Of a stretch of 64,000 nt of DNA, positions 1,723 to 36,739 are shown piece by piece. The DNA lies in assembly GCF_056712565.1 (NCBI RefSeq), contig NZ_CM160072.1. One strand, 5' to 3'. Numbering within the stretch: the stretch's first letter is position 1; every line of letters starts with the position of its first letter. Below the pieces are notes generated by a model. The model had not been told where the DNA came from, did no database searches, and saw nothing but the letters and a program-made list of their open reading frames with translations. A program made the position numbers and the translations under genes.

Positions 1723-1766
1723 CCCCAGAAAAGGAGTTTCCCCTGGAACACATTTCTACTACTACG

Positions 1767-3029
1767 TTGATCATTATTCTGATCATCATGGTGGTCATTT
1801 CAGCCTATTTTTCCGGTTCAGAAACTGGAATGATGACACTCAACCGCTATCGCCTGAGACACATGGCGAAGCAAGGTAATCGCTCGGCAAAACGCGTCGA
1901 AAAATTACTGCGCAAGCCAGACCGCCTGATAAGCCTGGTGTTAATCGGCAATAATCTGGTCAATATCCTTGCTTCCGCACTCGGCACTATTGTCGGGATG
2001 CGCTTGTATGGCGATGCTGGCGTGGCAATTGCGACTGGCGTGCTGACCTTCGTAGTGCTGGTTTTTGCTGAAGTATTGCCGAAAACCATTGCCGCGCTGT
2101 ACCCGGAAAAAGTCGCTTATCCGAGTAGTTTTCTACTGGCTCCGCTGCAAATTTTGATGATGCCGCTGGTCTGGTTGCTGAATGCTATTACCCGCATGTT
2201 AATGCGCATGATGGGCATCAAAACCGATATCGTGGTTAGCGGCTCTTTAAGCAAAGAAGAGTTGCGTACCATCGTGCACGAATCACGCTCACAAATTTCC
2301 CGTCGCAATCAGGATATGCTGCTGTCGGTGCTCGATCTGGAAAAGATGACCGTCGATGACATCATGGTGCCGCGCAGTGAAATTATCGGTATTGATATCA
2401 ACGATGACTGGAAATCGATTCTGCGCCAACTCTCCCACTCACCTCACGGGCGCATCGTGCTCTACCGTGATTCGCTGGACGACGCCATCAGTATGCTGCG
2501 TGTGCGTGAAGCCTGGCGACTCATGTCGGAGAAAAAAGAGTTCACCAAAGAAACCATGCTACGCGCCGCGGACGAGATCTATTTTGTCCCGGAGGGTACG
2601 CCGCTCAGCACACAGTTGGTGAAGTTTCAGCGCAACAAAAAGAAAGTCGGCCTGGTCGTCAACGAGTATGGAGACATTCAGGGACTGGTGACGGTCGAAG
2701 ATATTCTCGAAGAGATTGTCGGCGATTTCACCACGTCGATGTCGCCAACACTTGCCGAAGAGGTCACGCCGCAAAACGACGGGTCGGTGATTATCGATGG
2801 CACCGCCAACGTGCGAGAAATTAACAAAGCCTTTAACTGGCATCTACCGGAAGATGATGCTCGTACTGTTAACGGCGTCATTCTGGAAGCGCTGGAGGAG
2901 ATCCCGGTAGCAGGCACCCGCGTGCGTATAGGCGAGTACGATATCGATATTCTCGACGTACAGGACAATATGATTAAGCAGGTAAAAGTTTTTCCTGTAA
3001 AACCGCTGCGCGAGAGTGTGGCGGAGTAA
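1767..3029 (+). CDS. yfjD: CNNM/CorB-family transporter YfjD (DUF21 + CBS + CorC_HlyC)
   Basis: 420-aa ORF with N-terminal TM region and C-terminal CBS/CorC-like part; conserved position between ypjD and grpE. True start may lie upstream. Confidence 0.85.
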   Translation: MIIILIIMVVISAYFSGSETGMMTLNRYRLRHMAKQGNRSAKRVEKLLRKPDRLISLVLIGNNLVNILASALGTIVGMRLYGDAGVAIATGVLTFVVLVFAEVLPKTIAALYPEKVAYPSSFLLAPLQILMMPLVWLLNAITRMLMRMMGIKTDIVVSGSLSKEELRTIVHESRSQISRRNQDMLLSVLDLEKMTVDDIMVPRSEIIGIDINDDWKSILRQLSHSPHGRIVLYRDSLDDAISMLRVREAWRLMSEKKEFTKETMLRAADEIYFVPEGTPLSTQLVKFQRNKKKVGLVVNEYGDIQGLVTVEDILEEIVGDFTTSMSPTLAEEVTPQNDGSVIIDGTANVREINKAFNWHLPEDDARTVNGVILEALEEIPVAGTRVRIGEYDIDILDVQDNMIKQVKVFPVKPLRESVAE

Positions 3030-3033
3030 CGAA

Positions 3034-3061
3034 AACGGCCCGGCATTCGCATGCTGGGCCG
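3034..3061. terminator. Hairpin between convergent yfjD and grpE
   Basis: acggccc...gggccgt inverted repeat followed by T-rich run. Confidence 0.3.
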
Positions 3062-3083
3062 TGATTTATTACGAAAGCAGAAA

Positions 3084-3710
<627 letters not shown>

Positions 3711-3799
3711 CTAACTTCGCTTATTATGGGGATCAGTTTCAGGGTTTCAAGGGAAGCACTCACATTGTCATCAATCTTCGCAACAAGGACCTCGGAAAA

Positions 3800-4678
3800 A
3801 TGAATAATCATTTCAAGTGTATTGGCATTGTGGGACACCCACGGCACCCCACTGCACTGACAACACATGAAATGCTCTACCGCTGGCTGTGCACAAAAGG
3901 TTACGAGGTCATCGTTGAGCAACAAATCGCTCACGAACTGCAACTGAAGAATGTGAAAACTGGCACGCTCGCGGAGATTGGGCAACAGGCTGATCTCGCG
4001 GTTGTCGTTGGCGGCGACGGTAATATGCTGGGCGCGGCGCGCACGCTCGCGCGCTATGATATTAAAGTTATTGGAATCAACCGTGGCAACCTGGGTTTCC
4101 TGACTGACCTTGATCCCGATAACGCCCAGCAACAATTAGCCGATGTGCTGGAAGGCCACTACATCAGCGAGAAACGTTTTTTGCTGGAAGCGCAAGTCTG
4201 TCAGCAAGATTGCCAGAAACGCATCAGCACGGCGATTAACGAAGTGGTACTTCACCCTGGCAAAGTGGCGCATATGATTGAGTTCGAAGTGTATATCGAC
4301 GAGATCTTTGCGTTTTCGCAGCGTTCCGATGGACTGATTATTTCGACGCCAACAGGCTCCACCGCATATTCCCTCTCTGCGGGCGGTCCTATTCTGACAC
4401 CCTCTCTGGATGCGATTACCCTGGTGCCCATGTTCCCGCATACGTTGTCAGCACGACCACTGGTCATAAACAGCAGCAGCACGATCCGTCTACGTTTTTC
4501 GCATCGCCGTAACGACCTGGAAATCAGTTGCGACAGCCAGATAGCACTGCCGATTCAGGAAGGTGAAGATGTCCTGATTCGTCGCTGTGATTACCATCTG
4601 AATCTGATTCATCCGAAAGATTACAGTTATTTCAATACATTAAGCACCAAGCTCGGCTGGTCAAAAAAATTATTCTAA
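3800..4678 (+). CDS. nadK: NAD kinase
   Basis: 292 aa, [17 protein letters not shown]...[11 protein letters not shown] motif. Confidence 0.95.
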
Positions 4679-7264: not shown

Positions 7265-7733
7265 CACTGTAGACCTCTTTTGCACGAACAGTAAAAGCCT
7301 GCACCATATTAGCTGCCAGCTCTTTAAACACACGACCAAAGGCGAGTTCAATCAACTTATTGGTAAACTCAAAGTCGAGATGAAACTCAATACGGCACGC
7401 GTCCTGGCTCAACGGCGTAAACTTCCAACCGCCGATCAATTTCTTAAACGGTCCATCAACCAGACTCATGAGAATACTTTGATTACTGGTCAACTGGTTG
7501 CGGGTTGTAAACGTTTTGCTGATCCCAGCCTTAGACACATCTACCGCAGCAGTCATCTGCCCAGGAGTGGACTCCAGAATCCGACTTCCGGTACAACCCG
7601 GCAAAAACTGAGGATAAGACTGAACGTCATTCACTAACTGATACATTTGCTCCGCGCTGTAGGGCACCAGTGCGGTCCGGCTAATCTGAGGCATAACAAT
7701 TTCCATCAACAAAAATCCAACAAATAATATCAT
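7257..7733 (-). CDS. ratA: Ribosome association toxin RatA (YfjG, SRPBCC family)
   Basis: 158-aa [50 protein letters not shown]... Confidence 0.9.
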
Positions 7734-8561: not shown

Positions 8562-8924
8562 GGGGCTGATTCTGGATTCGACGGGATTTGCGAAACCCAA
8601 GGTGCATGCCGAGGGGCGGTTGGCCTCGTAAAAAGCCGCAAAAAATAGTCGCAAACGACGAAAACTACGCTTTAGCAGCTTAATAACCTGCTTAGAGCCC
8701 TCTCTCCCTAGCCTCCGCTCTTAGGACGGGGATCAAGAGAGGTCAAACCCAAAAGAGATCGCGTGGAAGCCCTGCCTGGGGTTGAAGCGTTAAAACTTAA
8801 TCAGGCTAGTTTGTTAGTGGCGTGTCCGTCCGCAGCTGGCAAGCGAATGTAAAGACTGACTAAGCATGTAGTACCGAGGATGTAGGAATTTCGGACGCGG
8901 GTTCAACTCCCGCCAGCTCCACCA
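8562..8924 (+). ncRNA. ssrA: tmRNA (SsrA, 10Sa RNA)
   Basis: Begins GGGGCTGATTCTGGATTCGACGGGATTTGCGAAACCCAAGGTGCATGCC, contains tag-peptide coding region, ends ...GGTTCAACTCCCGCCAGCTCCACCA; 363 nt. Confidence 0.95.
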
Positions 8925-9085
8925 ATCATGATTGGACGGTGTAAGGACAACACCAACAAAAACAGGAAGTTAGAAGTCTCAGCAGGACACCGACCAGACG
9001 GTGAGGAGACATAAAAGGATACGCAAAGGAGCCGCGGCTCCGAAGTGAAATGAAAGCCCGCTGATGCGGGCTTTTTTGCTTCTTC
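8898..9085 (+). repeat. attL: ssrA 3' core (cgggttcaactcccgccagc) plus ~170 bp similar to the attR copy
   Basis: Near-identical to 53357..53540 by direct comparison, including the terminator hairpin aaagcccgctgatgcgggctttttt. Confidence 0.7.
9055..9077 (+). terminator. Rho-independent terminator downstream of ssrA
   Basis: agcccgctgatgcgggct hairpin followed by TTTTTT. Confidence 0.6.
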
Positions 9086-9452
9086 TCTTTAGCCTGATTC
9101 GACACTCTCAATGCGGCCATAAACAACAACCCACTTTTCTTATACCGTAGCCTGTCCCCCTCTTCCTGCTTTCTAACCATAACAGATGTGAGCGTTTGCT
9201 ATGAGCGATATATAGTCATTCGTACCCTCCGATACTAATCATCACAGAAATTAATATATTCATTCCTTACTGAAAAGCTATGAAGTAGATATATAGGATT
9301 GGGGCGCGTATGGCACTGGACAGTTATGCATCTCCGAATATTATTCCGGAGCTAAGACAACTAGACTGGCCCCCTGAATCTCCAGACAACCAATATCACT
9401 TATTTAAGTGATAGTCTTAATACTAGTTTTTAGACTAGTCATTGGAGAGCAG

Positions 9453-9818
9453 ATGATTGATGTCTTAGGACCGGAGAAACGCAGACGGCGTACCACACAG
9501 GAAAAGATCGCAATTGTTCAGCAGAGCTTTGAACCAGGGATGACGGTCTCCCTCGTTGCCCGGCAACATGGTGTAGCAGCCAGCCAGTTATTTCTCTGGC
9601 GTAAGCAATACCAGGAAGGAAGTCTTACTGCTGTCGCCGCCGGAGAACAGGTTGTTCCTGCCTCTGAACTTGCTGCCGCCATGAAGCAGATTAAAGAACT
9701 CCAGCGCCTGCTCGGCAAGAAAACGATGGAAAATGAACTCCTCAAAGAAGCCGTTGAATATGGACGGGCAAAAAAGTGGATAGCGCACGCGCCCTTATTG
9801 CCCGGGGATGGGGAGTAA
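9453..9818 (+). CDS. insC: IS2 transposase OrfA (InsC)
   Basis: [56 protein letters not shown]... Confidence 0.85.
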
Positions 9819-10681
9819 GCTTAGTCAGCCGTTGTCTCCGGGTGTCGCGTGCGCAGTTGCACGTCATTCTCAGACGAACCGATGACTGGATGGATGGCCG
9901 CCGCAGTCGTCACACTGATGATACGGATGTGCTTCTCCGTATACACCATGTTATCGGAGAGCTGCCCACGTATGGTTATCGTCGGGTATGGGCGCTGCTT
10001 CGCAGACAGGCAGAACTTGATGGTATGCCTGCGATCAATGCCAAACGTGTTTACCGGATCATGCGCCAGAATGCGCTGTTGCTTGAGCGAAAACCTGCTG
10101 TACCGCCATCGAAACGGGCACATACAGGCAGAGTGGCTGTGAAAGAAAGTAATCAGCGATGGTGCTCTGACGGGTTCGAGTTCCGCTGTGATAACGGAGA
10201 AAAACTGCGAGTCACGTTCGCGCTGGACTGCTGTGACCGTGAGGCACTGCACTGGGCGGTCACTACGGGCGGCTTCAACAGTGAAACAGTACAGGACGTC
10301 ATGCTGGGAGCGGTGGAACGCCGCTTCGGCAACGAGCTTCCGGCGTCTCCAGTAGAGTGGCTGACGGATAATGGTTCATGCTACCGGGCTAATGAAACAC
10401 GGCAGTTTGCCCGGATGTTGGGGCTTGAACCGAAGAGCACGGCGGTGCGGAGTCCGGAGAGTAACGGCATAGCAGAGAGCTTCGTGAAAACGATAAAGCG
10501 TGACTACATCAGTGTCATGCCCAAACCAGACGGGTTAACGGCAGCAAAGAACCTTGCAGAGGCGTTCGAGCATTATAACGAATGGCATCCGCATAGTGCA
10601 CTGGGTTATCGCTCGCCACGGGAATATCTACGGCAGCAAGCCAGTAATGGGTTAAGTGATAACAGGTGTCTGGAAATATAG
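9776..10681 (+). CDS. insD: IS2 transposase OrfB (InsD), DDE integrase-like catalytic domain
   Basis: 301 aa overlapping orfA in another frame (frameshift fusion arrangement typical of IS3 family). Confidence 0.9.
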
Positions 10682-10839
10682 GGGCAAATCCAACAACCGA
10701 ATGCCGCAGCAGGTAAGATCACGCTAGGGGGGCTGGACAGAATGGCTGTTACGCCCAGTGTGAAGAAAAGAAGGCTAAGTATGGTAGAATTTCCATACGC
10801 ACAGACCTTGTTATCCGACTATACAGCCTGGAAGGCACT

Positions 10840-11628
10840 ATGACAAATCTACAACTGGAAGAAAGATTTAGGGCGCTTGAGAAAGATTACGATGCGCTCA
10901 TTTCCACAAAATATACTGCGCAGAACGTTCTCACTCACACTATGGAAACCTATGTTGATTCTGGTAAATATAAAAACTGGATCGCCAGAGTGAAAAAGTT
11001 AATAGAGGACAGCTACGGAAAAGAGTCTGATTATTACAATGACTTCAATACTGTAAACAGCAGGTGGTCTTCTAATTACAATACACTGATCAAAAGTTAT
11101 AAACCGTTGTTTGATGCGGCGAGAGATGATCTTGCGCACTCTGCTGTCAGTACTAATACTCCTCAAGAAGGTTCGCCGCTGAGCCTCGTACTTAATATTC
11201 TTAACAGGTTTCCGACCTTTGTTCGCCAGTTAAAGAGGCGGTACAACGGCCGTGCGCCGCTTGAAGTTAATGATGAGTATGACGTACAGGATTTGATTTA
11301 TGCACTGCTGACGCTTCATTTTAATGATATTAGGGCGGAAGAGTATACCCCCAGCTTTGCGGGCGCGGCCTCAAGACAGGACTTTCTTTTGAAAAAAGAG
11401 AAAATTGTGATAGAGGTGAAGAAAACCCGTGAATCTCTGGGAGCGGGTAAAGTTGGTGGAGAGTTGCTTATTGATATGGCGCGCTACCGCGCTCACCAAG
11501 ACTGCGATACGTTGATCTTGTTTGTATATGACCCGGATTGCTACATAAATAATCCTTTGGGCGTGAAAACCGATCTGGAATCTAAAGACGCGGAAGGAAA
11601 AGTGAAGGTTGTTATTGCGCAGTTCTGA
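10840..11628 (+). CDS. Hypothetical protein, helical N-terminus and possible PD-(D/E)xK nuclease-like C-terminus; defence candidate
   Basis: 262-aa ORF; C-terminal D...(D/E)xK-like motifs (DVQDLIYALL ... KEKIVIEVKKTRE); no family recognised; lies in the accessory islet. Confidence 0.5.
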   Translation: MTNLQLEERFRALEKDYDALISTKYTAQNVLTHTMETYVDSGKYKNWIARVKKLIEDSYGKESDYYNDFNTVNSRWSSNYNTLIKSYKPLFDAARDDLAHSAVSTNTPQEGSPLSLVLNILNRFPTFVRQLKRRYNGRAPLEVNDEYDVQDLIYALLTLHFNDIRAEEYTPSFAGAASRQDFLLKKEKIVIEVKKTRESLGAGKVGGELLIDMARYRAHQDCDTLILFVYDPDCYINNPLGVKTDLESKDAEGKVKVVIAQF

Positions 11629-11663
11629 CACGCTTAAGTGTCACCTTACAGGATTAGGTTTGC

Positions 11664-11709
11664 GGCCGTGCCAGCAGGACGAGCATGAAAAAGGCCGCTG
11701 GCACGGCCG
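11664..11709. terminator. Long hairpin between convergent ORFs
   Basis: cggccgtgccagc ... gctggcacggccg, 13-bp perfect inverted repeat. Confidence 0.4.
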
Positions 11710-11715
11710 GATTTG

Positions 11716-12009
11716 TCATCTTTGCCAGGTCAAATCAAAATCTACGTGAAAATCCGCAGGCTTAAGCTCGCAACTGCCACCACGCCCAATTAACGACGTT
11801 ATGTTTACAACGTTTGAACCTGTTGAGATGGCAAGTTGAGTGTCATCTGTAAACGTGATGATTAGCATTTCAGTCTGATGAACCTGTACTCCAGTTTTCT
11901 GAAAACCAATCTGGACAGATTTCACCGTTTTCCCAACCATTTCACGGGCTTGATTGATAGAGTAATTAGCTTCAACTTGTAGGTCATTCCTGAACTTGGG
12001 TAGTGTCAT
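11716..12009 (-). CDS. Small hypothetical protein (97 aa), downstream partner of the GIY-YIG gene
   Basis: ORF co-oriented with and downstream of 12220..13026; no recognisable motif. Confidence 0.45.
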   Translation of the reverse strand: MTLPKFRNDLQVEANYSINQAREMVGKTVKSVQIGFQKTGVQVHQTEMLIITFTDDTQLAISTGSNVVNITSLIGRGGSCELKPADFHVDFDLTWQR

Positions 12010-12219
12010 TTTACATCCTCTTTAGTGAAGTTTTCGCTATTTAAATCAGCAGCATTCCTTTTAAATCACTGGCATGTCAGCAGTGGATAGTCTGAGTGTA
12101 ACGTCCAGTGAGGGGAATAAATATTGGTCAGACTTTGCACAAAAGAGCCAACTATCGCGGGCTCTCTCTCATCATGTGCGAAAATTGACCACAATATGAA
12201 ATCCAGTTCCATTCCGAAA

Positions 12220-13044
<825 letters not shown>

Positions 13045-13152
13045 TCAATTGACAACTTATAATCCCTACTAGTTAGCATTATGATTTCCAGAGTGAGGAA
13101 TATAAAAATCTCTGTTTCTGGCACATAACAGCCCTTAAGATCGTAGCTCGCC

Positions 13153-13200
13153 ATCATGGGGTGTCGGGGGGCGGAGGTTCAAATCCTCTCGTGCCGACCA
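13153..13200 (+). other. Truncated tRNA 3' fragment (T-arm, acceptor, CCA), tRNA-Pro-like
   Basis: catggggtgtcggggggcggaggttcaaatcctctcgtgccgacca resembles the 3' half of tRNA-Pro as recalled; no matching 5' half upstream; followed by hairpin + T-run at 13215-13240. Confidence 0.55.
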
Positions 13201-13441
13201 AAAATCCCTTAAGAACCAGCCTATTATGGCTGGTTTTTTTATGATTGTTTTTTATGCGGAGAAATACCGGGGAATAATTGGGGTAAAACACCTTTAGGCT
13301 ATTCACTTAGCCTACCACCATCAAAATCTTTCCGAATGTATCCATCTCTTTTTTCTTATGCAGCTAAAACGAAGTCTTGATACTGTTTATTTACACAGAT
13401 AAGAATAATACTGTCTACAAACGCAGTACAAAAGAAGTGTT

Positions 13442-13620
13442 ATGCGTATTGAGATCTCCATAGCCAAAGACAAAATGACCAAATGCCAAACGGCGCTGTG
13501 GACGCGTTAAAGGAAGAATTAACCCAACACATTGGCAAGCGTTATGACGATGTGGAGATGATCGTAAAAGCCACCAGCAACGATAGTTTTTCAGTTAGAC
13601 ATACTGCAGATAAAGATTGA
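13442..13620 (+). pseudogene. DinI-like protein, frameshifted and C-terminally truncated
   Basis: Frame 1 [14 protein letters not shown] then stop; shifted frame continues [37 protein letters not shown], matching the DinI-family pattern MRIE..IAK...LP.GA.DAL..EL. Confidence 0.5.
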
Positions 13621-14044
13621 GCTAAAACTTTCGTTCAGGAAACTCTGAATGATACCTGAGAGTCTACTGAAGAGTTGTTTGTTCACTAGTTAGCACGTAG
13701 GAAATCATTCAATACTCGCACTATCGGAAGTTCACCAGCCAGTCGTAGCACGTCCTTGCAAACGACGTGCCTACGGTTTCAATCACCTCTCACCATCAAT
13801 TCTATCAATAATAATTAAACAGCGCCTAGACAAAATAAATAACAACAAGTCAACAACCTCGACAGGATGCCGATGGGATGATGAAGAGATAAGAAAGAAT
13901 AACCAGTAAAGCCCTAAAACGTCAGCGTTCAGACGCGTTTTTTACTTAATCGGTAACAAATACGTTGTATCATAGCAAAATAAAATGATTGTTCTAAATC
14001 AGATTAACTCCTCACTTTTGTACAATGTCGCTTACAGGTATACC

Positions 14045-15934
14045 ATGAAATCCGAGACGCTAACTGTCCAACAACTTTTTCAAGACCGCCGACAATACTG
14101 TGTTCCATTCTATCAACGTGCCTATGTATGGACTCAGCAAGACCAGTGGTCAGCTCTACTGGAGGATATCCTAGAGAAAGTACAATCCCGGCTCTCGGGT
14201 ACAAAACCAACTCCCCATTTCCTTGGTGCGGTTGTACTGGAACCTCAATCAAAAAAAGGATTATTAGGTGTAGATTCCATACATATTATTGATGGTCAGC
14301 AACGATTGACCACTCTTCAATATGTTCTGGCATCCATCCGATTAGCATTACGTGCTACGGATCTTTCCAGCTTAGAGGCTCTCATTTCGCCTTGCCTGAA
14401 AAACTCAAACGAAGACACAATGCGAAATAAAGAAGTAGAACGCTTCAAACTGTGGCCAACTTTTCGGGATCAAACTCATTTTATTCAAAGTTTTAATGTT
14501 GAAAATATTGACGATCTCCGGGACGTATTCTCTGATAGTTTCACGCAGCATGGTACGTTGCGTAAGCATTTTAATCACCCGCCATCACTAGAAGCATTAT
14601 GTTTTTTTACTGAAGCCTTTATAAAATGGATTAAAATAGAAAACCACTCACCACAAGAAAATGCTGTAGCTCTAATTGAGGCTGTCTTAACAGATCTGAA
14701 ACTGGTAAGCATATTTCTCGAAGCTGAAGATGATGCCCAAATAATTTTTGAAACATTAAATGGGCGAGGGGCGGAACTTCATGCTACGGATCTTATTCGC
14801 AACTATATCTTTATGTGCGCTGAGCATGAAAATATTAATGCTATTGAATTATATGAAAATGAGTGGAAGAGCTTTGAAGATAAATACTGGTCGGAAAAAC
14901 AACGCCGTGGACGTATTAATAAACCACGCATGGAGTGGCTAGTACATGCGACATTGCAATCAGAAAGGCAACGTGAAATTGATCTGTCTCGCCTTTACAA
15001 TGAGTATCGTGATTATGTAAGTAAGGACTTGTCTTCACAACGAGCAGATCTGCAAGTAAAGCGCCTCAAACAATATGCATCACAATATAAAGAATTGGTT
15101 GATGGTTTTGGCACAACCCCCATCTCACACTTTGGATATCGCATCGCAGACTATGATGTGACGACACTTTATCCGCTTGCTTTGTTCATTTCGATAGCTA
15201 ACATCGCTGATGATGAGAAAGCAGCCATGTATAATGATCTTGTCTCCTACGTAGTACGAAGAGCCGTATGTGGCCTGACGCCAAAGAATTACAACAATGT
15301 ATTTATGAATGTATTGCGGCACTTGGCTAAAACGGAAATTTCCAGTGTTGAGTTACGTAATATCCTCAATAACTTAAATGGCGAAGCCTCACGTTGGCCT
15401 GGTGACTCAGAATTTCTCAACGCTTGCATCAATGCTCCACTTTATCCTGGCAGGCTCGACGCACCGAAAATGCGCTCAATGTTAACGGAACTTGAAAGAG
15501 AACTTTGTCGCCAAGTAAAGACAGAAAAGCCTGATGTTCCAAATCTTTCTAATCTCGATATCGATCATCTTATGCCTCAAAGTTGGTATTCCTGTTGGCC
15601 TCTCGAAAATGGTCGTATGGTGACAAATTCAGATGCTACGGTATTGAACCAAATTGTTCTGTCTGGAACCGATCTTACCCCTGAACAGCTACTGGTAAGG
15701 AAACGGCAACAAGCGATATCTACTTTGGGAAATCTAACTTTGCTTAACCTTAGCGTAAACCGTTCTGTTCAGAATGCTGTATTTCTGAAAAAACGTGATG
15801 CTCTCATCGTCCACACCAATCTACGACTGAACATTCCACTTATAGTTAAGGATAAATGGGATGAGGATGAAATCCTGGAGCGGGGTAAAAAGTTGGGGGA
15901 AATTGCATTGAAAGTATGGCCAAAACACGATTAA
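14045..15934 (+). CDS. Type IV restriction endonuclease, GmrSD-like (N-terminal DUF262/ParB-like, C-terminal DUF1524/HNH-like)
   Basis: N-terminal DGQQRLTTL motif; C-terminal DIDHLMPQSW...N motif; start taken at MKSETLTVQQLF; AT-rich gene. Confidence 0.75.
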   Translation: MKSETLTVQQLFQDRRQYCVPFYQRAYVWTQQDQWSALLEDILEKVQSRLSGTKPTPHFLGAVVLEPQSKKGLLGVDSIHIIDGQQRLTTLQYVLASIRLALRATDLSSLEALISPCLKNSNEDTMRNKEVERFKLWPTFRDQTHFIQSFNVENIDDLRDVFSDSFTQHGTLRKHFNHPPSLEALCFFTEAFIKWIKIENHSPQENAVALIEAVLTDLKLVSIFLEAEDDAQIIFETLNGRGAELHATDLIRNYIFMCAEHENINAIELYENEWKSFEDKYWSEKQRRGRINKPRMEWLVHATLQSERQREIDLSRLYNEYRDYVSKDLSSQRADLQVKRLKQYASQYKELVDGFGTTPISHFGYRIADYDVTTLYPLALFISIANIADDEKAAMYNDLVSYVVRRAVCGLTPKNYNNVFMNVLRHLAKTEISSVELRNILNNLNGEASRWPGDSEFLNACINAPLYPGRLDAPKMRSMLTELERELCRQVKTEKPDVPNLSNLDIDHLMPQSWYSCWPLENGRMVTNSDATVLNQIVLSGTDLTPEQLLVRKRQQAISTLGNLTLLNLSVNRSVQNAVFLKKRDALIVHTNLRLNIPLIVKDKWDEDEILERGKKLGEIALKVWPKHD

Positions 15935-16029
15935 TGCAATTAATAAAATGATTATAGTGGCCTTACATTAGTAAGGCCGCTACTCACTATTAAATACTTT
16001 AATTTGCATCAAGAACAGCAGTGTCAGCC

Positions 16030-16158
16030 CTAGGTCTCGGACTTTGTACCGCTTATCTTGTCTTCAAAAATCAGCTCGCATCCTGCACAGTTCAGCGCAT
16101 TACGTTGTAGATCTGTGTTCTGGTCATTTGTTGACACACGTACATAGCCAATAAGCAT
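16030..16158 (-). pseudogene. DNA invertase (Pin/Gin/Hin family) truncated to an N-terminal ~41-codon fragment
   Basis: Reverse-strand translation MLIGYVRVSTNDQNTDLQRNALNCAGCELIFEDKISGTKSET then stop; N-terminus of serine invertases including the catalytic-Ser region. Confidence 0.75.
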
Positions 16159-16184
16159 GGTAGATCTCCCTGACAAAAGCAGGA

Positions 16185-16679
16185 ATGATGCCATTTGCTC
16201 GTTATTTCTGCATTTTCATAAACGTTGGTTTGGGAGAAGGCTCTGCATTACCTGTTGGTGTGCCTGTTCCATGGCCTTCAGCCACACCGCCAACAGGCTG
16301 GCTGAAATGCAACGGTGCGGCTTTTTCTGCTGAAGAATACCCGGAACTGGCAAAGGCTTATCCGACAAATAAATTGCCTGATTTACGTGGTGAGTTTATT
16401 CGTGGCTGGGATGATGGGCGCGGCGTTGATTCAAGGCGTGCGGTGCTGTCAACACAAGAGCCAACTGTAGGTACTTTTTATGTGGAGCTAGCTATCATCT
16501 CGGGAACTTTGAGCGGCTCAGGTGCTAAATTTACCGATTCAGTAGGGATTGGATCAACCAGTAGTAACATTACCGTTAGCAACGGTAATGACCAGTCCGT
16601 GTCGGGTACAGTGGCCGTTAACCCCGTCGATACCCGTCCACGCAACATTGCATTTAACTATATCGTGAGAGCAGCATAA
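16185..16679 (+). CDS. Alternative tail-fibre C-terminal cassette (Sv'-like), in the unexpressed orientation
   Basis: Contains phage tail-collar-like motif VPVPWPSATPPTGWLKCNGAAFSAEEYPELAKAYP; shares the LGLGE crossover sequence with the expressed tail-fibre gene. Confidence 0.7.
   Translation: MMPFARYFCIFINVGLGEGSALPVGVPVPWPSATPPTGWLKCNGAAFSAEEYPELAKAYPTNKLPDLRGEFIRGWDDGRGVDSRRAVLSTQEPTVGTFYVELAIISGTLSGSGAKFTDSVGIGSTSSNITVSNGNDQSVSGTVAVNPVDTRPRNIAFNYIVRAA
16226..16240. repeat. Left inverted repeat / crossover site of the invertible tail-fibre segment
   Basis: ttggtttgggagaag is the exact reverse complement of 18141..18155. Confidence 0.65.
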
Positions 16680-17281
16680 TGGATAAAGCAATATTAAATA
16701 GTGGACTTGTTGCTACAAAGGCAGGGGATATTACCGTTTATAACTATGATGGTGAAACTCGGGAATATATTTCCACTTCAAGTGAATATCTTGCCGTTGG
16801 TGTTGGTATCCCGGCATATTCCTGTCTGGATGCACCAGGTATACATAAGGCGGGTTATGCTATCTGTCGTTCTGTGAATTTAAATTCATGGGAATATGTG
16901 CCAGACCATCGCGGTGAAATCGTCTATAACACCGAAACGGGAGAATCAAAACAAATCACAGCACCGGGTGATTACCCCGAAAATACAACCACTATTGCCC
17001 CATTAACGCCATACGATAAATGGGATGGTGAGAAATGGGTGACCGATACTGAGGCACAGCATAGCGCCGCAGTAGACGCGGCAGAAGCACAGCGTCAGTC
17101 ACTGATTGATGCTGCAATGGCTTCCATCGGTCTGATTCAGCTGAAATTACAGGCCGGACGGAAGCTGATGCAGGCAGAAACAACCCGGCTTAACGCTGTG
17201 CTGGATTACATTGACGCGGTGACGGCAACAAATACCAGCACAGCGCCGGATGTCATCTGGCCTGAACTGCCGGAGGCGTAG
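16679..17281 (+). CDS. Tail fibre assembly protein (alternative Tfa, partner of the Sv'-like cassette)
   Basis: 200 aa; C-terminal LDYIDAVTATNTSTAPDVIWPELPE typical of Tfa chaperones; convergent with and overlapping the other tfa. Confidence 0.75.
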   Translation: MDKAILNSGLVATKAGDITVYNYDGETREYISTSSEYLAVGVGIPAYSCLDAPGIHKAGYAICRSVNLNSWEYVPDHRGEIVYNTETGESKQITAPGDYPENTTTIAPLTPYDKWDGEKWVTDTEAQHSAAVDAAEAQRQSLIDAAMASIGLIQLKLQAGRKLMQAETTRLNAVLDYIDAVTATNTSTAPDVIWPELPEA

Positions 17282-17696
17282 GCCATTCAATATCTGGCGC
17301 ACAGGAAGTATCGACCAGTTCCAGTGCGTCCAGATAATCCAGCCACGAATTATATTGCGCCAGTTCCTCGCCTTTCAGACGACCAATAGCAGCTTTGCCA
17401 GGCCACTGATGGGTATTGATGTAGGTATTGACTTCTGAAACCAAAGATATTTTTTTCATTTCAGCCGTCAACACCTCATCCTCTTTTGAAGGGGGTGGGG
17501 AATTAATCCATACTGGCCGTCCTGAACTGTCAGCGCCAATTTCTTTCCCTTCTGGATGCAGACCAAGAAATTGCTCATATGTTTCTCTGGTAATTTCAAT
17601 AACATCATCAGGAAGCGTTCCCGCATCCTCATATTCTGGAAACAATTCTTGCAGATAAAAACTTTTACTTCCGGGTGAAAAGAATACTGAGTTCAT
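17253..17696 (-). CDS. Tail fibre assembly protein (Tfa)
   Basis: 147 aa, C-terminal LDYLDALELVDTSCAPDIEWPTPP motif. Confidence 0.75.
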   Translation of the reverse strand: MNSVFFSPGSKSFYLQELFPEYEDAGTLPDDVIEITRETYEQFLGLHPEGKEIGADSSGRPVWINSPPPSKEDEVLTAEMKKISLVSEVNTYINTHQWPGKAAIGRLKGEELAQYNSWLDYLDALELVDTSCAPDIEWPTPPAVQAR

Positions 17697-17698
17697 TA

Positions 17699-18442
17699 TT
17701 ACCGTCCAATGATTAACGCTGAGACGCTGGTATCTGAAGGAAAGGCTGCATTCAGTGGTTTGTCGACTTTGAACACAATCGTATTATTCCCCCTGACAGC
17801 GGCAAAAGAACAAACCGCCGTCGCGTATGAACCTGTAATATTACTGGATACACCACCATAAGCTGTTGTTGATACCAGAGGGATAACGCCCAGCACCTTA
17901 TTAGGAAATACAAAGGGCAATGTGGCTGTGGCAATATAAGACTTATTAGAACCTGTGATGGCATAAGCATTATCAGTCATTCCATTCATCGCCACTGGGC
18001 CGCTTATACTTACAGTAACCATCTGAATGATTAGCCCGTCAGGTTGACGAATCACAAAATTTCCATTGCCACCAGTAACCGTCCAGAAAGACATATCAGG
18101 GATTTGGTTTTCCCCGTTGCCCACATTCCGTTTTGCCGCTTCTCCCAAACCAAGGTTTTCGAGAGCCGTTTTCACCGTGCCGTCCGATTTGATATCGCTA
18201 AACGGATTCTTGCGGCTTAACAGCAGCGCACGAAGCGCGGTAAGCAGCTGGTCGTGCCGCGCCTTCTCCAGACTGGCACCGGATGCCTCCACCACGCTGC
18301 AGAGTTCTTCCTGCAACATGTCAAAGTAGTCATCATCCAGATCGGTGGCAGGCGTGCCTGTCTGGGGGTTACCACGGGTAAAACCGTTCTTACCCGCGCC
18401 GAACTTATCCTTCTGCGCGGTTTTCGTGTCTATACGATGCAT
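17699..18442 (-). CDS. Tail fibre protein (constant N-terminus + currently expressed variable C-terminus)
   Basis: 247 aa [29 protein letters not shown]...; crossover LGLGE inside the gene; e14 StfP-like. Confidence 0.75.
18141..18155. repeat. Right inverted repeat / crossover site of the invertible tail-fibre segment
   Basis: cttctcccaaaccaa, reverse complement of 16226..16240. Confidence 0.65.
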
Positions 18443-18445
18443 GGA

Positions 18446-19030
18446 TTACTCCGGATATTTAAAAATTACGTAGGTATGCGAAGGGCAGAGTTTGTTAAGC
18501 ACACATTCGACGACGGTGTCGCCCCAGATACGCAGCGCGGAATCACAGGGATCGCCACATGTCATCCAGGTGCTGTTGGTGGCGGCTGGCATGTTGACCT
18601 GCCAGTAATACCGCCATTCCGGCGCATTCACCGCGTCAGTACAGGCCGATGAGCAGGTGAACGTGCTTTTGTCGTATCGCGTGATGGTGGCGTCTGGTCT
18701 GCCCAGGGCAGCAAGCTGTGCAAGGTAAAAATCCTCATTGATGCCGCCCGCCAGGTTAACCTTCGCATCCAGTCGTTGCTGACGCTGGCGAAGGGTCTGT
18801 GTTCCTGCGGGAATACATTCATCCGGCAGGCCGCACAGACGCTCCCAGCGATTTATCAGTTCGGTGGTGGTGCGCGGATCCAGCTCCCGCATCAGGGCAT
18901 CCGCACGCTGATGAACGCGGGTTAATGACTGTGCCGCACCGGCAATCGCCGGATCGCTGGCTGACCACGCCGGACCGGGCGGCAGCAGTGCCGACAACAG
19001 ACGGATGTAATCATCGTTTGTCACGCCCAT
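18446..19030 (-). CDS. Tail protein, Mu gp48 / YmfQ-like (DUF2313)
   Basis: 194 aa [29 protein letters not shown]...; located between baseplate J and the tail fibre. Confidence 0.65.
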
Positions 19031-20078
19031 GAAATCGTCCCCAGAACCGCCAGTTCATTTTTTGCAATGGAGATATTTTCCGCCGGTGCAAGCAATTGAT
19101 GGCTGTATTCCCCGTTCGCACCGGAAATCGCTTCACTGATACGCGACACCTTCAGTTCTCCCTGCGGATAACCATCACGCAGCAGGAACGAACGCAACTC
19201 CGCGGTGATGGCAGCCCGTATTTCCGGTGTATCCGGCGTCACACGGATATGAAAATCCACCGTATGCGCACCGGCCTGAACACATACAAATCAGAGCCTG
19301 CCACCGGGGCCAGTGGCCCGATATGTTGTCTTGCCGCCGTTTCCGTTGATTCTTCCGGAATGGGATTAATCAGGTCACTGCTGGCAATCATCACACCGAC
19401 AGTCCCCGTTCCCATCCAGTGACGGTATGCCCATGCGCGGGTAATGCCGGGCAATTCTTTAGCCCAGACAACATAGTCCCCGTCAGCCCCGCCCTGAGGC
19501 GTCCAGTAATACCGCTCAATGACGCGGGCGCGCCACGTTTCCAGCTCTTCAGTATCAAATCCACCTGTCAGAGTGTCTGCCACGCCGGAAGACGGCAGAC
19601 CATTAACCGGCGTGACCAGGATTAATGACGTACCGTCGTCAGCGTTACCGACCGCGCCTGCACTTGAGCAGGCGATCGGCACGCGCAGGACACCACCGGC
19701 GCTGGTTGCATCGGCAGTTGCCGTGTACTGAATCAGGTCATCGCGCTGAATAACACTCCCGGCGGTCACCTTCAGGCCATCGCTGACGCCTTCCCAGCGC
19801 ATATACCCGCTGGCAGTCGTGGCCCCCTTGCGCGGACACCGTTTCATCGCAGCATGTCGCGCCAGCCAGGACTCATCGCACAGGTCAGGCAGCATGTTCA
19901 TTGCCAGATAATCGATGTACCCGTAAACCGTATGCAGCGCCGCCGCATACACCTTTGCCCGCACGTCTTCATCCATGCGCCGGAGCGTGTCGCTGACGTC
20001 CAGCCTGGCGAATAAATCGTTACGGAGCATACTGATATTTTCTGCCAGCGTCGGGCGCTGAAATTCACTGTCCGCCAT
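19021..20078 (-). pseudogene. Baseplate J-like protein (Mu gp47-like), split by a frameshift
   Basis: N-terminal 279-aa ORF (19239..20078) and C-terminal 79-aa ORF (19021..19260) overlap in different frames; together ~350 aa. Confidence 0.55.
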
Positions 20079-20493
20079 GCGTTATCGCACTCCACAGATC
20101 ATCTAAAGAAATCATTACCGGTCCGTCACGACGCCAGAGAGTGATACTGTTACCCAGTTCATTAATCCCGGTGCGGAGGATATCCAGATCAATACGGGAC
20201 ACCACGCCGTCATCAATCATCCATTGCAGGCATTCGCGGATATACCCCCTTACCGTCTGCACCAGCTGATTGGTCAGTTTGCTGCGCTGAAGCAGCCACA
20301 GTCGGGAGCCGTAACGGTCATTCTGTACCGCAGGCCAGGTATCCCCCCACCATCCCATCGGGACGTCGGCGTTGTCATCAGGCTCCGCCCGCCGCCAGGT
20401 AAACAGGGAAATCACCACGGCGCGGGTCAGCGGATCCAGCGGTGCGCTGGCGCAGGTGCGTTTACCGTTCACCGTCAGCCACAGTTCCATCAT
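20065..20493 (-). CDS. Baseplate protein (Mu gp46 / GPW-gp25-like)
   Basis: 142 aa; position and size in a Mu-like baseplate cluster. Confidence 0.6.
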   Translation of the reverse strand: MMELWLTVNGKRTCASAPLDPLTRAVVISLFTWRRAEPDDNADVPMGWWGDTWPAVQNDRYGSRLWLLQRSKLTNQLVQTVRGYIRECLQWMIDDGVVSRIDLDILRTGINELGNSITLWRRDGPVMISLDDLWSAITHGGQ

Positions 20494-21038
20494 GCCTCCA
20501 TCGCTTTATCAGGTTTGTCGGTGTTACTGCCCTGACCGTTCTCTCTGTGACGATGCCCGTTATAGGCAAGCCGCATCGCTGACATGGTGGTGCCGCTGGA
20601 GTCGCACAGGTCTTTCACCTGTCCTGTCACTTCCAGGTCCATTTCAAAACGTGCTTCAGGTGCATTGCGAAACGTGATCGTTTTACCTGCACCGTCCACC
20701 ACGATCCCCTCCCGGGTCAGCGTCACAGACTGCCCCTGATCGTCATAGACCGCCACCTCACCCGTCTGCAGCCCTTTCAGGCGGTAGCGCCGGTCCGACA
20801 CCGTAACAACCACCGCATGAGAACGGTCACCATCCGGAAACAACACCACCGCTTCCGCACCGCTGTTTGCCCTTGCGGTAAAACCGTAGGGTTCAAGATG
20901 TTCAACCCCGGCTTTGGGTTCACCGGCAATCAGGGACACATCCACGGTCTGACATTTCGTGGCGGCACTGATGCTTTTCACCACTGCCCGCCCAATCAGG
21001 CCGAGGAGTTGTCGCTGCATGGCTTCAATCGTACTCAT
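20490..21038 (-). CDS. Baseplate assembly protein V (Mu gp45-like)
   Basis: 182 aa; synteny. Confidence 0.6.
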   Translation of the reverse strand: MSTIEAMQRQLLGLIGRAVVKSISAATKCQTVDVSLIAGEPKAGVEHLEPYGFTARANSGAEAVVLFPDGDRSHAVVVTVSDRRYRLKGLQTGEVAVYDDQGQSVTLTREGIVVDGAGKTITFRNAPEARFEMDLEVTGQVKDLCDSSGTTMSAMRLAYNGHRHRENGQGSNTDKPDKAMEA

Positions 21039-22117
21039 CAGAACGGGTCCTCCTGTACTCTGGCTTTTTTCTTTTTCCGCGCGCCGGGGGCTTCGGGTTC
21101 AGGCAGATAAGCATCAGGTGGGCCGACACGGATTTCCGTCAGGGTGCCGTTCTGGTCCTGAGTAAACGTGACTTCCGAGACAAGCAGTTCGGTATTGTCG
21201 AAACCACAGACCGGATCGAAGACAATCACCCGCTGGTTGGGCTGCCACAGCGTACCGTTACCCTGTCGCCAGCCCTGCACCACATAGGTGGTTTCATCCG
21301 TCCGCGCCGCCCGTTGTCGGGCTTCAAAGTCAGCACGCGCAATACAGCCTGCCCCCGTAGCCTGCCCTGTCTGCCTGATATACATCGGACGGTAACGGGC
21401 AATAAATGCGTCCTCTGTGCGGGCCCGCAGCGCGCTGGTGGTGGCCTCACCGAAATCATCGTCGTTTCCAGCACGCTGCCCCGCCACCTGGTAAACAGAA
21501 AACCGCTCCCGGATACTCTTCTCCGTATCGCAGGAAAGGATGTTTTCCCCGAGTACCAGCGCAGTATGTGCCCGCGTTGAGCCAATACCGCCAATCACCA
21601 GCCTGCCGTGTGGGTCGTCGTAAGCCAGTGCCTGCTGCTGACCGAGTATTTTGTTGATTACCTCAATCACCGTTTCACCGTGATCGGGCTGGACGTCAGG
21701 AATAACACCCGACGGCGCACCGTTGTTCACCACCTCAATGCCGAAAGGCGCAGCAAGCGCCTGCGCAATCTGTACCAGCGATCGTCCGTTAAACTGTGTC
21801 GGTTCGGCTGCACAGTCAATCAGGTCAGCGGTCAGACTGCGTCCGGCAATACCGGTGCTGACCGAACGGGCATCGTAACGAACGGGCGTCGCCTCCACCC
21901 AGCCGGTGATCACCAGCTCATCACCAATCAGCACCTCCACTTTTGAACCGTTTTTAATGCGCGGCTGAAGCGTGGTGATACCCTCATCACCCGGCCACTG
22001 GCGGGTGATCTCCACACTGAAATCCCGCGCCAGCCGTTCAATACCGGCACCGATGCGCACCGATGTCCAGCCATTCCACTCCCGGCCATTTACCCGTAGC
22101 GTGACGTTATCGTTCAT
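21038..22117 (-). CDS. Baseplate hub / late control D-like tail protein (Mu gp44-like)
   Basis: 359 aa; synteny with Mu-like tail genes. Confidence 0.6.
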   Translation of the reverse strand: MNDNVTLRVNGREWNGWTSVRIGAGIERLARDFSVEITRQWPGDEGITTLQPRIKNGSKVEVLIGDELVITGWVEATPVRYDARSVSTGIAGRSLTADLIDCAAEPTQFNGRSLVQIAQALAAPFGIEVVNNGAPSGVIPDVQPDHGETVIEVINKILGQQQALAYDDPHGRLVIGGIGSTRAHTALVLGENILSCDTEKSIRERFSVYQVAGQRAGNDDDFGEATTSALRARTEDAFIARYRPMYIRQTGQATGAGCIARADFEARQRAARTDETTYVVQGWRQGNGTLWQPNQRVIVFDPVCGFDNTELLVSEVTFTQDQNGTLTEIRVGPPDAYLPEPEAPGARKKKKARVQEDPF

Positions 22118-23484
22118 TGCACTGGCACCTTCAGAGGGATCACCGGCACAAAGCCGGGATGCGTAATGGCATTACGCCGGATAATGTCCGCGTCACGCGC
22201 CGCGTTATCAAACCAGGTCGCCGCCAGCACCAGCGCGGGTAAAACCTCATCCGGTGTGCGCTGAATGATCCGTGCAGACTGTTCAAGGCGCGTGTTGATA
22301 TCCGCATTCAGATCTGCTTTCACCCGGCGCAGCGCCAGAAACAGCACATCACTGGTTGTACGGGACAACTCCTTATCAATTGCCGTATTCAGTGTGTCGC
22401 GAATGTCGGTCAGTTCTTCCCACGTTGGCAGGTCAACCGTGTTTTTCACCGCCGGTGCATTGTTCAGTGCCGGATGCGTGACAGAAGGCCAGCCGGTGCT
22501 CTGCGCGGGTGTTGTTGACTGCCCCACTGTGGCATTCTGCATCACCGCGGAAGTTGTGGGCGCAGGCAATCGTGTGACGGCATACGCCGCTTCGCTGATT
22601 GCGGTCGTACGAAGGGTGCTGGCAACCACGTTACGCTGCTGCGTCGCCGTGGCGGTGGTTTTACTGTCCGTTTTCCAGACGCCGCGCGGTTGCAGATCGC
22701 TGCCGAGGCTGACACCGGAAAGCGTTTTGATCATGGTGACCAGGTCGCTGGCGTTACCATAAAGGCGTTTCCCGGTACGCCACATTTTCTGCACCTGCTC
22801 AACGAAATTTTTGCCTGACGATGGCGGCGGCAGAAGTACCGAGATATCCCCCTGCAACAGCCTGGCGGCATCCGATACGGCAGAATCCACCACTTTCATC
22901 GCATCAGAAACATACCCAAGCATTGTGCTGGCATTACCGACGACGTCGTTCTGCACAAAATCTGCCACGCCATCGATACTGAAACCACTGAAGCTGTCAC
23001 TGATGCAGTCATCCAGTGCAGAACAGGATGACATCAGCGTCTGCGCCGTCGCCGCACCTGAAGTGGGGTAAGAGAGTTCTCCCGCTTCGACAAACTTCAG
23101 GTCAAAGCGGACAATACGCCCTTCACTCTTCGATGTGCTGACCCGAACTTCCCCGTCAACACAGACTTTCAGCTCACCGTAAGTCGGATGGACAAGCGTG
23201 CCGGGACCGGGTTTATTCAGCGCGTCAATCAGGCGATCGCGCTGGTCAAAGCAGTCATCTCCCACCACATAAGCTGTGATGGACGGGCGGAAAGTGATTT
23301 TCCCCAGGTCTTCGGTATAGGGTTTGTCGCGGTTCGGGTATTCGTGCGTTTCCACACGACGACCGGTTCCCGCACTTTCTTCTTCAACCTTAAACGGCAC
23401 ACCGCGAAATGACGCGTCCTGAAGTCTGTCTTTCCACGTCATATAAACTCCGTACATAAAAAATCCCACCGGAGTGGGACTCAT
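22114..23484 (-). CDS. DNA circularisation protein-like tail component (Mu gp43-like)
   Basis: 456 aa immediately downstream of the tape measure gene. Confidence 0.55.
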   Translation of the reverse strand: MSPTPVGFFMYGVYMTWKDRLQDASFRGVPFKVEEESAGTGRRVETHEYPNRDKPYTEDLGKITFRPSITAYVVGDDCFDQRDRLIDALNKPGPGTLVHPTYGELKVCVDGEVRVSTSKSEGRIVRFDLKFVEAGELSYPTSGAATAQTLMSSCSALDDCISDSFSGFSIDGVADFVQNDVVGNASTMLGYVSDAMKVVDSAVSDAARLLQGDISVLLPPPSSGKNFVEQVQKMWRTGKRLYGNASDLVTMIKTLSGVSLGSDLQPRGVWKTDSKTTATATQQRNVVASTLRTTAISEAAYAVTRLPAPTTSAVMQNATVGQSTTPAQSTGWPSVTHPALNNAPAVKNTVDLPTWEELTDIRDTLNTAIDKELSRTTSDVLFLALRRVKADLNADINTRLEQSARIIQRTPDEVLPALVLAATWFDNAARDADIIRRNAITHPGFVPVIPLKVPVQ

Positions 23485-34801: not shown

Positions 34802-35301
34802 GATTCGATGATTTTCAGAAACGGGTTAGTGGCTTTCTTCTGCCCCGCCAGGCCAATCAGACGCTGACGGCTGCTGGGGTCGAGTCCGAGCATTGCCCCC
34901 GTGCTGCTCATCTCGGACTCCTGTTCTTTTTTGGCTGTCAGCTCCGGATTTTTGACCCTGCCGCCCATTGCGCCGGTGATGGTATTGCCCTGTATGGCAA
35001 TATTTTTCACAGCACGTAGCCAGAACTCATAGGCCACGCACCACCGCTCAAGCACCGCGAGGTCAGTCACGCACAGCAGGCCCTGACCGCAGAGTTCTTT
35101 GGTTGTCAGTTGCCACATGATCGTGGCGAGAGGGAGATCTTCTTCAGCGAACCACTCCGGTGGCTCAACACCTTTGATGGGCGTAAAAACAGGTTCATCT
35201 TTGTTCAGGGCTCGCTTGCCGGGGTTTCCGGCCAGCGCCTTGCGCGCCGTTGGCTTGGGGCGACGCCCGGAACGCCCCGCCGTTCCAGCCATATGCGGCA
35301 C
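34798..35301 (-). CDS. Terminase small subunit (P27-like)
   Basis: 167 aa with basic N-terminus, immediately upstream of the large subunit. Confidence 0.7.
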
Positions 35302-35417
35302 TCCTGGTTAAATTTCATTTTTCGCGGGTATAAAAAAACGATGGGGCGGGCAGTCCGGAAGACGTCAGGTCACAGGGATTTGACCCGCCCCTCCCCTCAG
35401 AAAGTTGAGAATTATTA

Positions 35418-35768: not shown

Positions 35769-35870
35769 TTAAAGTGGGATCTAACTCTAATAATTTAAAA
35801 AATTTAATTGGGTCTTGATATTAATCACATAGACTCAATGCTCTTTAGTTCTTACATAGGTGGTTGTATT

Positions 35871-36311: not shown

Positions 36312-36417
36312 ATAAATTTTTGCTAACATAGCCCCGCGCCATGACAAGATTTTCTGTTCTAGATGCAAGGGCTATGTGTGAATATCTATAAACAAAAACC
36401 CCATCCGGTGATTTTTG

Positions 36418-36669: not shown

Positions 36670-36739
36670 TATTCTTCGCGATTATAAAACAATGAATAAA
36701 ATCATTAAAGCATAGACGTTAAATATCCTCAAAATGTGA

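Follow-up and report, generated by a model that had tools for sequence, protein, structure and literature searches.

Tail-fiber genes whose C-terminal ends are exchanged by inversion of a DNA segment are known from phage Mu (G segment, invertase Gin), from phage P1 (C segment, invertase Cin), and from the e14 element of Escherichia coli K-12, in which the genes of and around the P segment follow the order stfP-tfaP-tfaE-stfE-pinE-mcrA. The Gin, Cin, Hin, and Pin invertases are known to substitute for one another. Inversion reportedly needs two 26-bp sites together with a Fis-bound enhancer of ~60 bp "within the invertase gene," and in the Mu/P1-type switches this enhancer is said to lie inside the 5' end of the gene. 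Fin, a Gin-family invertase of the Salmonella Fels-2 prophage, reportedly acts in trans on a chromosomal invertible segment. PinQ encoded by one prophage flips the P segment of another prophage, which has the same sites; the effect needs overproduction of PinQ or phage induction, and PinE of K-12 is intact (Kirigo et al. 2025, PMC12529663). The locus described here occupies positions 16185 to 18442 of a stretch of 64,000 nucleotides from contig NZ_CM160072.1 (assembly GCF_056712565.1), referred to below as the window. It is an e14-type segment in a prophage of extraintestinal pathogenic E. coli (ExPEC) of the sequence type 95 (ST95) type, and it represents a known kind of switch in an orphaned, trans-dependent state. 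Its linked pin gene is truncated, the segment is found in both orientations on identical haplotypes and has flipped repeatedly, and it inverts in cultures of strain UTI89. It is likely that this switch is not frozen but still flips when a compatible Gin-family invertase is supplied from elsewhere, in UTI89 most likely from a P2-like prophage.

The 26-bp crossover sites are identical to those of the e14 P segment, and the genes are arranged in the same order. At the nucleotide level, ymfQ and the constant part of stf are 94.7% identical to their e14 counterparts, tfaE is 89% identical, and the remnant of pin (pin') with its adjacent site is 94.7% identical. The pin-proximal open reading frame (ORF) begins with the same leader (MPFA.YF.IFINVGLGE), and a type IV restriction gene stands at the same end of the element. 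In contrast to e14, pin is cut at about codon 41 here, and mcrA is replaced by a gene for a DUF262/GmrSD-type enzyme (mREase_IV). Compared with StfP/TfaP, the C-terminal cassette expressed here and its chaperone show no relationship or an identity of only 54%; the segment measures 1,929 bp rather than 1,797 bp; and the prophage is complete, with an HK97-type head and a Mu-type tail, and in ST95 lies beside ssrA and not in icd. The mechanism class is that of the Mu G segment with Gin and of the P1 C segment with Cin, which share with this locus a distance of 67 bp between crossover site and invertase start codon and alternative fiber C-termini with chaperones of the S/S'-U/U' type. Unlike in Mu and P1, however, the linked invertase here is dead, the cassettes are much shorter, and the constant part comprises only ~100 amino acids (aa). 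The Salmonella Hin/Fin case differs in that the target retains an invertase of its own, Hin, and in that the segment carries a promoter instead of fiber cassettes.

Crossover sites, fiber cassettes, and the truncated pin gene

A 15-mer, TTGGTTTGGGAGAAG, is present on the plus strand at 16225-16239 and as its reverse complement at 18139-18153. With up to two mismatches allowed, these are its only copies in the window (0.13 expected by chance), and none of 100 shuffles of the window gave two matches. In its longer form, the inverted repeat extends over 20 nucleotides (nt) at 95% identity. Each 15-bp arm, made up of a half-site plus the core, falls within a 26-bp site conforming to the Gin/Hin/Pin consensus, TTNTCNNAAACCNNGGTTTNNGANAA (Table 1), and the only consensus matches in the whole window are these two sites (0.04 expected). 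They are imperfectly palindromic, stand in inverted orientation, and share the same AA/TT central dinucleotide. The identity between the two sites stops one base beyond this dinucleotide, as exchange at the 2-bp core would produce. The left site is identical to the pin-proximal site of K-12 e14, and the right site is identical to the e14 site inside stfP; the right site presumably also bears a close resemblance to hixL. The repeat given for the e14 P segment, TTGGTTTGGGAGAAGG, has the same sequence as the repeat found here (PMC12529663).

Table 1. Features of the locus and its surroundings, in window coordinates
Feature	Position	Strand	Remarks
PD-(D/E)XK nuclease-like protein	10840-11628		C-terminus resembles Aga helical-REase
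PD-T4-3 homologue with GIY-YIG domain	12220-13026		453 bits
DinI-like pseudogene	~13483-13620		
Type IV methyl-directed restriction enzyme (DUF262/GmrSD-like)	14045-15934	+	PADLOC mREase_IV, 1415 bits, full length
Primer 1 of the 2.9-Mb assay	15421-15440		In restriction gene, outside the segment on the left
pin' remnant	16036-16158	-	Codons 1 to ~41 of a PinE-type serine invertase; not catalytically competent
Putative Fis-dependent recombinational enhancer	16062-16136		Within pin', 90-165 bp from crossover; from alignment with Mu gin
Pin-proximal ORF	16188-16679	+	13-codon leader, repeat, variable C-terminus 2 (tail-collar fiber domain)
Left 26-bp crossover site	16213-16238		TTTTCATAAACG-TT-GGTTTGGGAGAA; central dinucleotide 16225-16226; consensus match with 1 mismatch
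Invertible segment	16225-18153		1929 bp including both central dinucleotides; exact in silico flip found in other genomes at 100% identity
tfaE, chaperone gene of variable C-terminus 2	16679-17281	+	PHROG 105, E = 3e-95; 90.5% identity with K-12 TfaE
Primer 2 of the 2.9-Mb assay	17073-17092		In tfaE, inside the segment; opposite strand in UTI89
tfa, chaperone gene of variable C-terminus 1	17253-17696	-	PHROG 188 'tail fiber assembly protein', E = 3e-55
stf, expressed tail-fiber gene (247 aa)	17699-18442	-	Constant N-terminus 18154-18442; variable C-terminus 1 17699-18138
Right 26-bp crossover site	18140-18165		TTCTCCCAAACC-AA-GGTTTTCGAGAG; central dinucleotide 18152-18153; consensus match
Primer 3 of the 2.9-Mb assay	18984-19003		In ymfQ, outside the segment on the right

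Judged from its sequence, the structure is a switch of the e14 P-segment/Mu G-segment type, belonging to the Gin/Hin/Cin/Pin family, with two C-termini for one constant N-terminus. The expressed fiber protein is assigned to PHROG 1396 ('tail fiber protein') over residues 1-102 and to phrog_12714 over residues 101-247, and its first 106 residues share 95% identity with K-12 StfP. The product of the pin-proximal ORF (RefSeq proteins WP_001115587.1 and WP_001115559.1) is assigned to PHROG 523 ('tail collar fiber protein', E = 7e-69). Although nominally silent, this ORF has its own ATG and a leader of 13-14 codons that is conserved with K-12 stfE, and it is annotated as a protein. A promoter scan gave no consensus sigma-70 match near 16100-16225, and the total number of matches equaled the shuffle expectation. 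Between the two fiber genes, tfa and tfaE converge with a 29-bp overlap. In translation, the repeat reads LGLGE within stf and VGLGE within the pin-proximal ORF (...INVGLGEGS). Flipping 16225-18153 in silico yields an in-frame fusion of 248 aa, in which ...ENLGLGE is followed by GSALPVGVPVPWP...; the reading frame is maintained in either orientation (247 and 248 aa), and RefSeq contains proteins for both states (WP_000554664.1 and WP_000554665.1). Conservative site-specific inversion between the 26-bp sites would swap the receptor-binding C-terminus, each version of which has its own Tfa chaperone, on the constant N-terminus.

No intact linked serine invertase stands beside either site; pin' is all that was found. 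The ORF at 16030-16194 on the minus strand contains MLIGYVRVSTNDQNTDLQRNALNCAGCELIFEDKISGTKSE, which corresponds to PinE codons 1 to ~41, and pin' is a near base-for-base match to the intact pinE of strain KE58 until the homology breaks off sharply at ~16036. A tblastn search with PinE found no other serine recombinase in the 64-kb window. RefSeq labels pin' in every carrier as 'recombinase family protein, incomplete', with a missing C-terminus. The 3' part of pin is replaced by the mREase_IV gene, which occupies the position that mcrA has in e14 (pinE-mcrA in K-12). 20KM0223N and SOI121 carry this mREase_IV-pin' module, with pin broken at the same position, in an e14-type prophage at the icd/iraM site, and the mREase_IV-pin' arrangement is found in ~295 of 5,426 complete E. 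coli genomes with 92.5-100% identity and at two attachment sites. Because the same module and breakpoint are also found at the icd site, pin appears to have been cut by one ancient cargo swap. In this single event, the end of the prophage (the 3' part of pinE together with mcrA) would have been exchanged for a different type IV restriction gene, with pin cut at about codon 41, and it is this swap that would have orphaned the switch.

Most of the anatomy had been recognized in an initial annotation of the window, which described exact 15-bp inverted repeats bracketing a ~1.9-kb segment (1.93 kb) with two convergent, overlapping tfa genes. Its comparison with the Mu G and e14 P segments holds, and so does its statement that the cognate invertase is truncated; the alternative cassette does give an in-frame fusion. 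The repeat coordinates given there (16226-16240 and 18141-18155) were off by 1-2 nt, and the LGLGE motif that was read in both genes is present in stf but is VGLGE in the pin-proximal ORF.

Orientation among genomes and in UTI89 cultures

The orientation seen in the window, together with the junction of the restriction gene and pin', was found at full coverage in 22 complete genomes. When 16225-18153 alone was inverted in the query, hits of full coverage and 100% identity were obtained in at least 60 complete genomes, including those of UTI89, S88, NU14, APEC O18, and ATCC 11775, and hits of 80% coverage or more in 111 genomes. Because the junction is identical in both orientation classes, the truncation is older than the orientation differences.

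A local tree was based on ~50 kb around the locus in nine sequences, with the segment flipped back to a common orientation before alignment. Eight informative characters, all mutually compatible, support the groups ((window, AH21G053, SF-468), APEC O1), (IHE3034, N21), and (N58, MS20655) and leave UTI89 unresolved. The window orientation is found in the window, AH21G053, IHE3034, N21, APEC O1, and MS20655, and the flipped orientation is found in SF-468, UTI89, and N58. This distribution conflicts with the tree and requires at least two inversions, or three if the pair of N58 and MS20655, which is united by one single-nucleotide polymorphism (SNP), is counted. Over 50 kb, orientation is the sole difference between AH21G053 and SF-468, and the nine sequences contain no SNPs inside the segment. 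Orientation is homoplastic, and the segment has flipped repeatedly. An assembly artifact was dismissed as the source of the differences, since assemblers are not misled by a repeat of 15 bp, long-read complete genomes show both states, and PCR (polymerase chain reaction) confirms the flip.

The segments of the two genomes with the element at the icd site, 20KM0223N and SOI121, are 99.7% identical and mutually inverted. In 20KM0223N, the right site (7276-7301 in the numbering of that locus) carries one substitution, TTCTCCAAAACC instead of TTCTCCCAAACC, which ends the 15-bp identity and changes the fiber motif from LGLGE to LGFGE. This substitution may be a first step to real locking in that strain.

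Inversion in culture is documented by a structural-variant scan of UTI89 based on paired-end reads (SVRE; Russell et al. 2019, PMC6458436), which reported inversions at 0.9, 2.1, and 2.9 Mb that were validated by PCR, including in control cells. The PCR validation is taken from the text of the authors. The three primers of the 2.9-Mb assay map onto the segment and its flanks (Table 1), and the assay therefore tests inversion of exactly this segment. It follows that the segment flips in a strain in which the linked pin gene is truncated. The report is inconsistent about its panels, since the legend of Fig. S1 assigns D, E, and F to the 0.9-, 2.1-, and 2.9-Mb inversions, whereas the main text treats D and E as the prophage inversions and F as an asn tRNA inversion; the primer mapping settles which loci are behind the panels. 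The main text also states that only one prophage inversion adjoins an invertase. The 2.9-Mb prophage inversion, which is the locus described here, is presented in the parts of that report drawn on here solely as a Fim-independent structural variant, with no mention of the truncated linked pin or of the need for a trans-acting enzyme. The inversion in UTI89 is thus already in the literature, and its interpretation as an orphaned, trans-dependent switch was apparently not made there.

Source of the invertase and competing explanations

The 0.9-Mb inversion in UTI89 corresponds to the actively inverting tail-fiber cassette of a P2-like prophage beside serS (0.92 Mb). The invertase of this prophage (NC_007946, 918974-919573; WP_000905061.1) is intact, with a length of 199 aa and identities of 85% with Mu Gin and 76.5% with PinE, and it is accompanied by gix-like sites. 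Pin-family genes were counted using a chimeric probe that joins a restriction-gene anchor to pinE; the anchor by itself, as a control, matched exactly one place in every listed genome. The UTI89 chromosome has exactly one extra pinE-like place, the Gin-like gene of the P2-like prophage, and no pinR/pinQ-like sequence was found on that chromosome. Flipping across prophages at the same sites has been shown (PMC12529663), and the intact Gin-like invertase of the P2-like prophage is most likely the catalyst in UTI89. Similar P2-like invertase loci stand at differing positions in other ST95 genomes, so that this invertase appears to come and go within the lineage; NU14 and SF-468 are among the strains with a Gin-like gene. 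With both crossover sites in place, along with the 123 bp of pin' in which this invertase family keeps its Fis-dependent enhancer, the necessary cis elements would persist, and the segment would invert in any cell that contains a compatible Gin-family invertase.

Among the matches listed, an extra pinE-like place was found in 7 of 10 genomes with the window orientation and in 15 of 46 others (odds ratio, 4.8; p = 0.04), an association that is uncorrected for phylogeny. Several points weigh against flipping by a prophage-borne Gin-like enzyme. The enzyme search covered the UTI89 chromosome and serine recombinases within the reach of blastn. Gin-like and PinR-like genes are absent from the chromosomes of PMV-1, GN06489, and GN06758, which have the window orientation, and from those of many flipped genomes (e.g., ZJ3920 and SF-166). 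In these genomes, the orientation must stem from an earlier invertase-bearing state, from a plasmid, or from some other mechanism, and the segment may currently be locked in genomes without a Gin-family gene. In addition, the matches to the Fis site in pin' are weak (13/15), and their spacing is 60 bp by the best motif matches, compared with 48 bp in Mu.

The UTI89 P2-like prophage (31459-50000 in the numbering of that locus) has a block from the tail sheath gene to gpU and ogr/D genes that are ordered unlike those of canonical P2. Its Gin-like invertase gene lies between gpU and the fiber cassette, and a D-like gene is annotated as shortened, with a partial ORF adjacent to it. For IHE3034, which also scored an extra pinE-like place, the serS region and a P2-like prophage at pflA/pflB gave no Gin/Pin homologue; the regions fetched held only an unrelated 153-bp 'integrase' remnant, and the probe reports the best place per record. 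IHE3034 further carries an element of ~10 kb between cspD/yljB and clpS (15457-25644 in its own numbering) that is absent from the UTI89 site and encodes an integrase, a primase, a major capsid protein, a head decoration protein, and a small terminase. It looks like a phage satellite, and clpA beside it is annotated as frameshifted.

The initial annotation held the segment to be frozen in one orientation. Locking through the loss of Pin, with the two orientations representing an ancestral polymorphism from before the truncation or having been moved by recombination, would agree with the truncated state of pin and with the shared orientation of near-clonal isolates (three 729_* isolates, GN06489/GN06758, and E16002/E18006), from which it follows that switching is not fast. 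It would also agree with the many genomes that lack a second chromosomal Pin-family gene and with the report that a pinE deletion in K-12 is locked (PMC12529663). A single junction is shared by all carriers, however, so that the truncation came first; identical 50-kb haplotypes differ in orientation alone; and orientation conflicts with at least six mutually compatible characters. Reads and PCR, moreover, place both orientations inside UTI89 cultures according to the text of that report (PMC6458436). A truly frozen segment is therefore highly improbable, and the claim is wrong as a general statement. The proviso attached to it, that switching would need a Gin/Pin/Hin-family invertase acting in trans, appears to describe what actually happens.

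RecA-dependent homologous recombination between the inverted repeats of 15-20 bp, with no site-specific enzyme, would give products of the same sequence as site-specific inversion, and genome comparison cannot separate the two. It would also account for orientation changes in genomes with no detectable invertase. However, 15-20 bp of identity is below the length usually needed for efficient recombination in E. coli (~20-30 bp), and here the identity coincides exactly with the half-site plus core of a consensus invertase site. In addition, paired-end reads from 48-h cultures contained the flip often enough for it to be called, as the published text indicates (PMC6458436), and genomes with a second pin-like gene are overrepresented among those in the minority orientation, all of which makes a RecA-dependent origin very unlikely. 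It is scarcely probable that the trans-acting enzyme is an invertase of the PinQ/PinR type (~38% identity with PinE) or a plasmid-borne invertase and not a Gin-like prophage enzyme. Overproduced PinQ does flip the P segment of e14, whose sites are the same (PMC12529663), and pinR-like sequence is present in some ST95 genomes (S88, MS7163, FY26, and 729_*), but the UTI89 chromosome has a Gin-like gene and no pinR-like sequence, and the K-12 pinE mutant is reported to be locked despite the presence of pinQ and pinR (PMC12529663).

Flipping by an invertase supplied from elsewhere would draw on an enhancer that is still present in cis. In an alignment with Mu gin, pin' corresponds to the part of that gene in which two Fis-like 15-mers are spaced 48 bp apart; the matches to the Fis consensus in pin' are weak and lie 96.5 and 156.5 bp from the core, and the break in pin lies 190 bp from the crossover. 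For comparison, the native enhancer of hin starts ~100 bp from hixL, its nearest site. The alignment and this geometry suggest that the first 123 bp of pin, preserved as pin', retain the enhancer. The Fis-motif scan was set aside as proof of an enhancer because the matches are weak and the spacing is ambiguous, and it serves only as supporting geometry. APEC IMT5155, in which an IS66-family element (ISCro1; 1332-3947 in the numbering of that locus) lies between pin' and the left site, within ~15 bp of the site, was considered as a natural enhancer-less control and rejected, as pin' is still in cis. A second IS66 copy truncates the restriction gene in the same strain.

It is also possible, though unlikely, that pin' is kept as a working enhancer, the e14-like family having ceded its fiber switch to the invertases of unrelated coresident prophages, and that the switch is maintained for a host-level function (for example, receptor masking by an StfE2-like product of the pin-proximal ORF) rather than for the host range of the phage. 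A host-level function, blocking of phage adsorption, has been proposed for the pin-proximal chimeric ORF (PMC12529663); the activity claimed for K-12 StfE2 rests on overproduction and on a C-terminal domain that is absent here.

The orphaned state of this switch means that a pseudogenized invertase beside an invertible segment is no proof of locking. Gin-family switches can use the enzymes of other mobile elements, and phase-variable content consequently depends on the whole prophage load of a genome. The locus, found in ~5% of complete E. coli genomes (those of UTI89, IHE3034, S88, APEC O1, and the type strain among them), would be missed or wrongly labeled by any annotation pipeline or inversion survey in which an intact recombinase next to the segment is a prerequisite. 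It provides a simple natural system in which cross-prophage control and the need for a cis enhancer could be tested; in other respects, it is a switch of an ordinary and well-understood kind.

Host prophage and neighboring genes

The region of the switch is 100% identical to that in IHE3034, APEC O1, and other ST95-type ExPEC. An exact 38-bp direct repeat (AAGTCTCAGCAGGACACCGACCAGACGGTGAGGAGACA) at 8974-9011 and 53428-53465 brackets an element of 44.5 kb, and its two copies are probably attL and attR. The first begins 50 bp beyond the end of ssrA (8562-8924), and the second lies past the integrase gene and three cargo genes, one of them STAS-like. Because the direct repeat brackets the whole element, the genes at the restriction end are prophage cargo.

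In the window, the baseplate J/gp47 gene is frameshifted by a 1-bp deletion at ~19268 (ORFs 19021-19260 and 19239-20078). The frameshift is shared with AH21G053 and SF-468 (RefSeq 'frameshifted'), whereas the gene is intact in IHE3034, UTI89, N21, N58, APEC O1, and MS20655. The prophage tail is probably defective in the sublineage of the window, AH21G053, and SF-468, and fiber switching there could therefore not serve phage host range.

A defense cluster extends over 10840-15934 at the pin end of the prophage and includes the nuclease-like, PD-T4-3-like, and restriction genes listed in Table 1; in APEC O1, the mREase_IV gene contains a frameshift. Between ssrA and the first cargo gene of the prophage lies a full-length IS2 insertion sequence of 1,336 bp (9357-10692; NCBIfam IS2 TnpA and TnpB). 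This IS2 copy, which is absent from all eight compared genomes, and four SNPs are the features private to the window.

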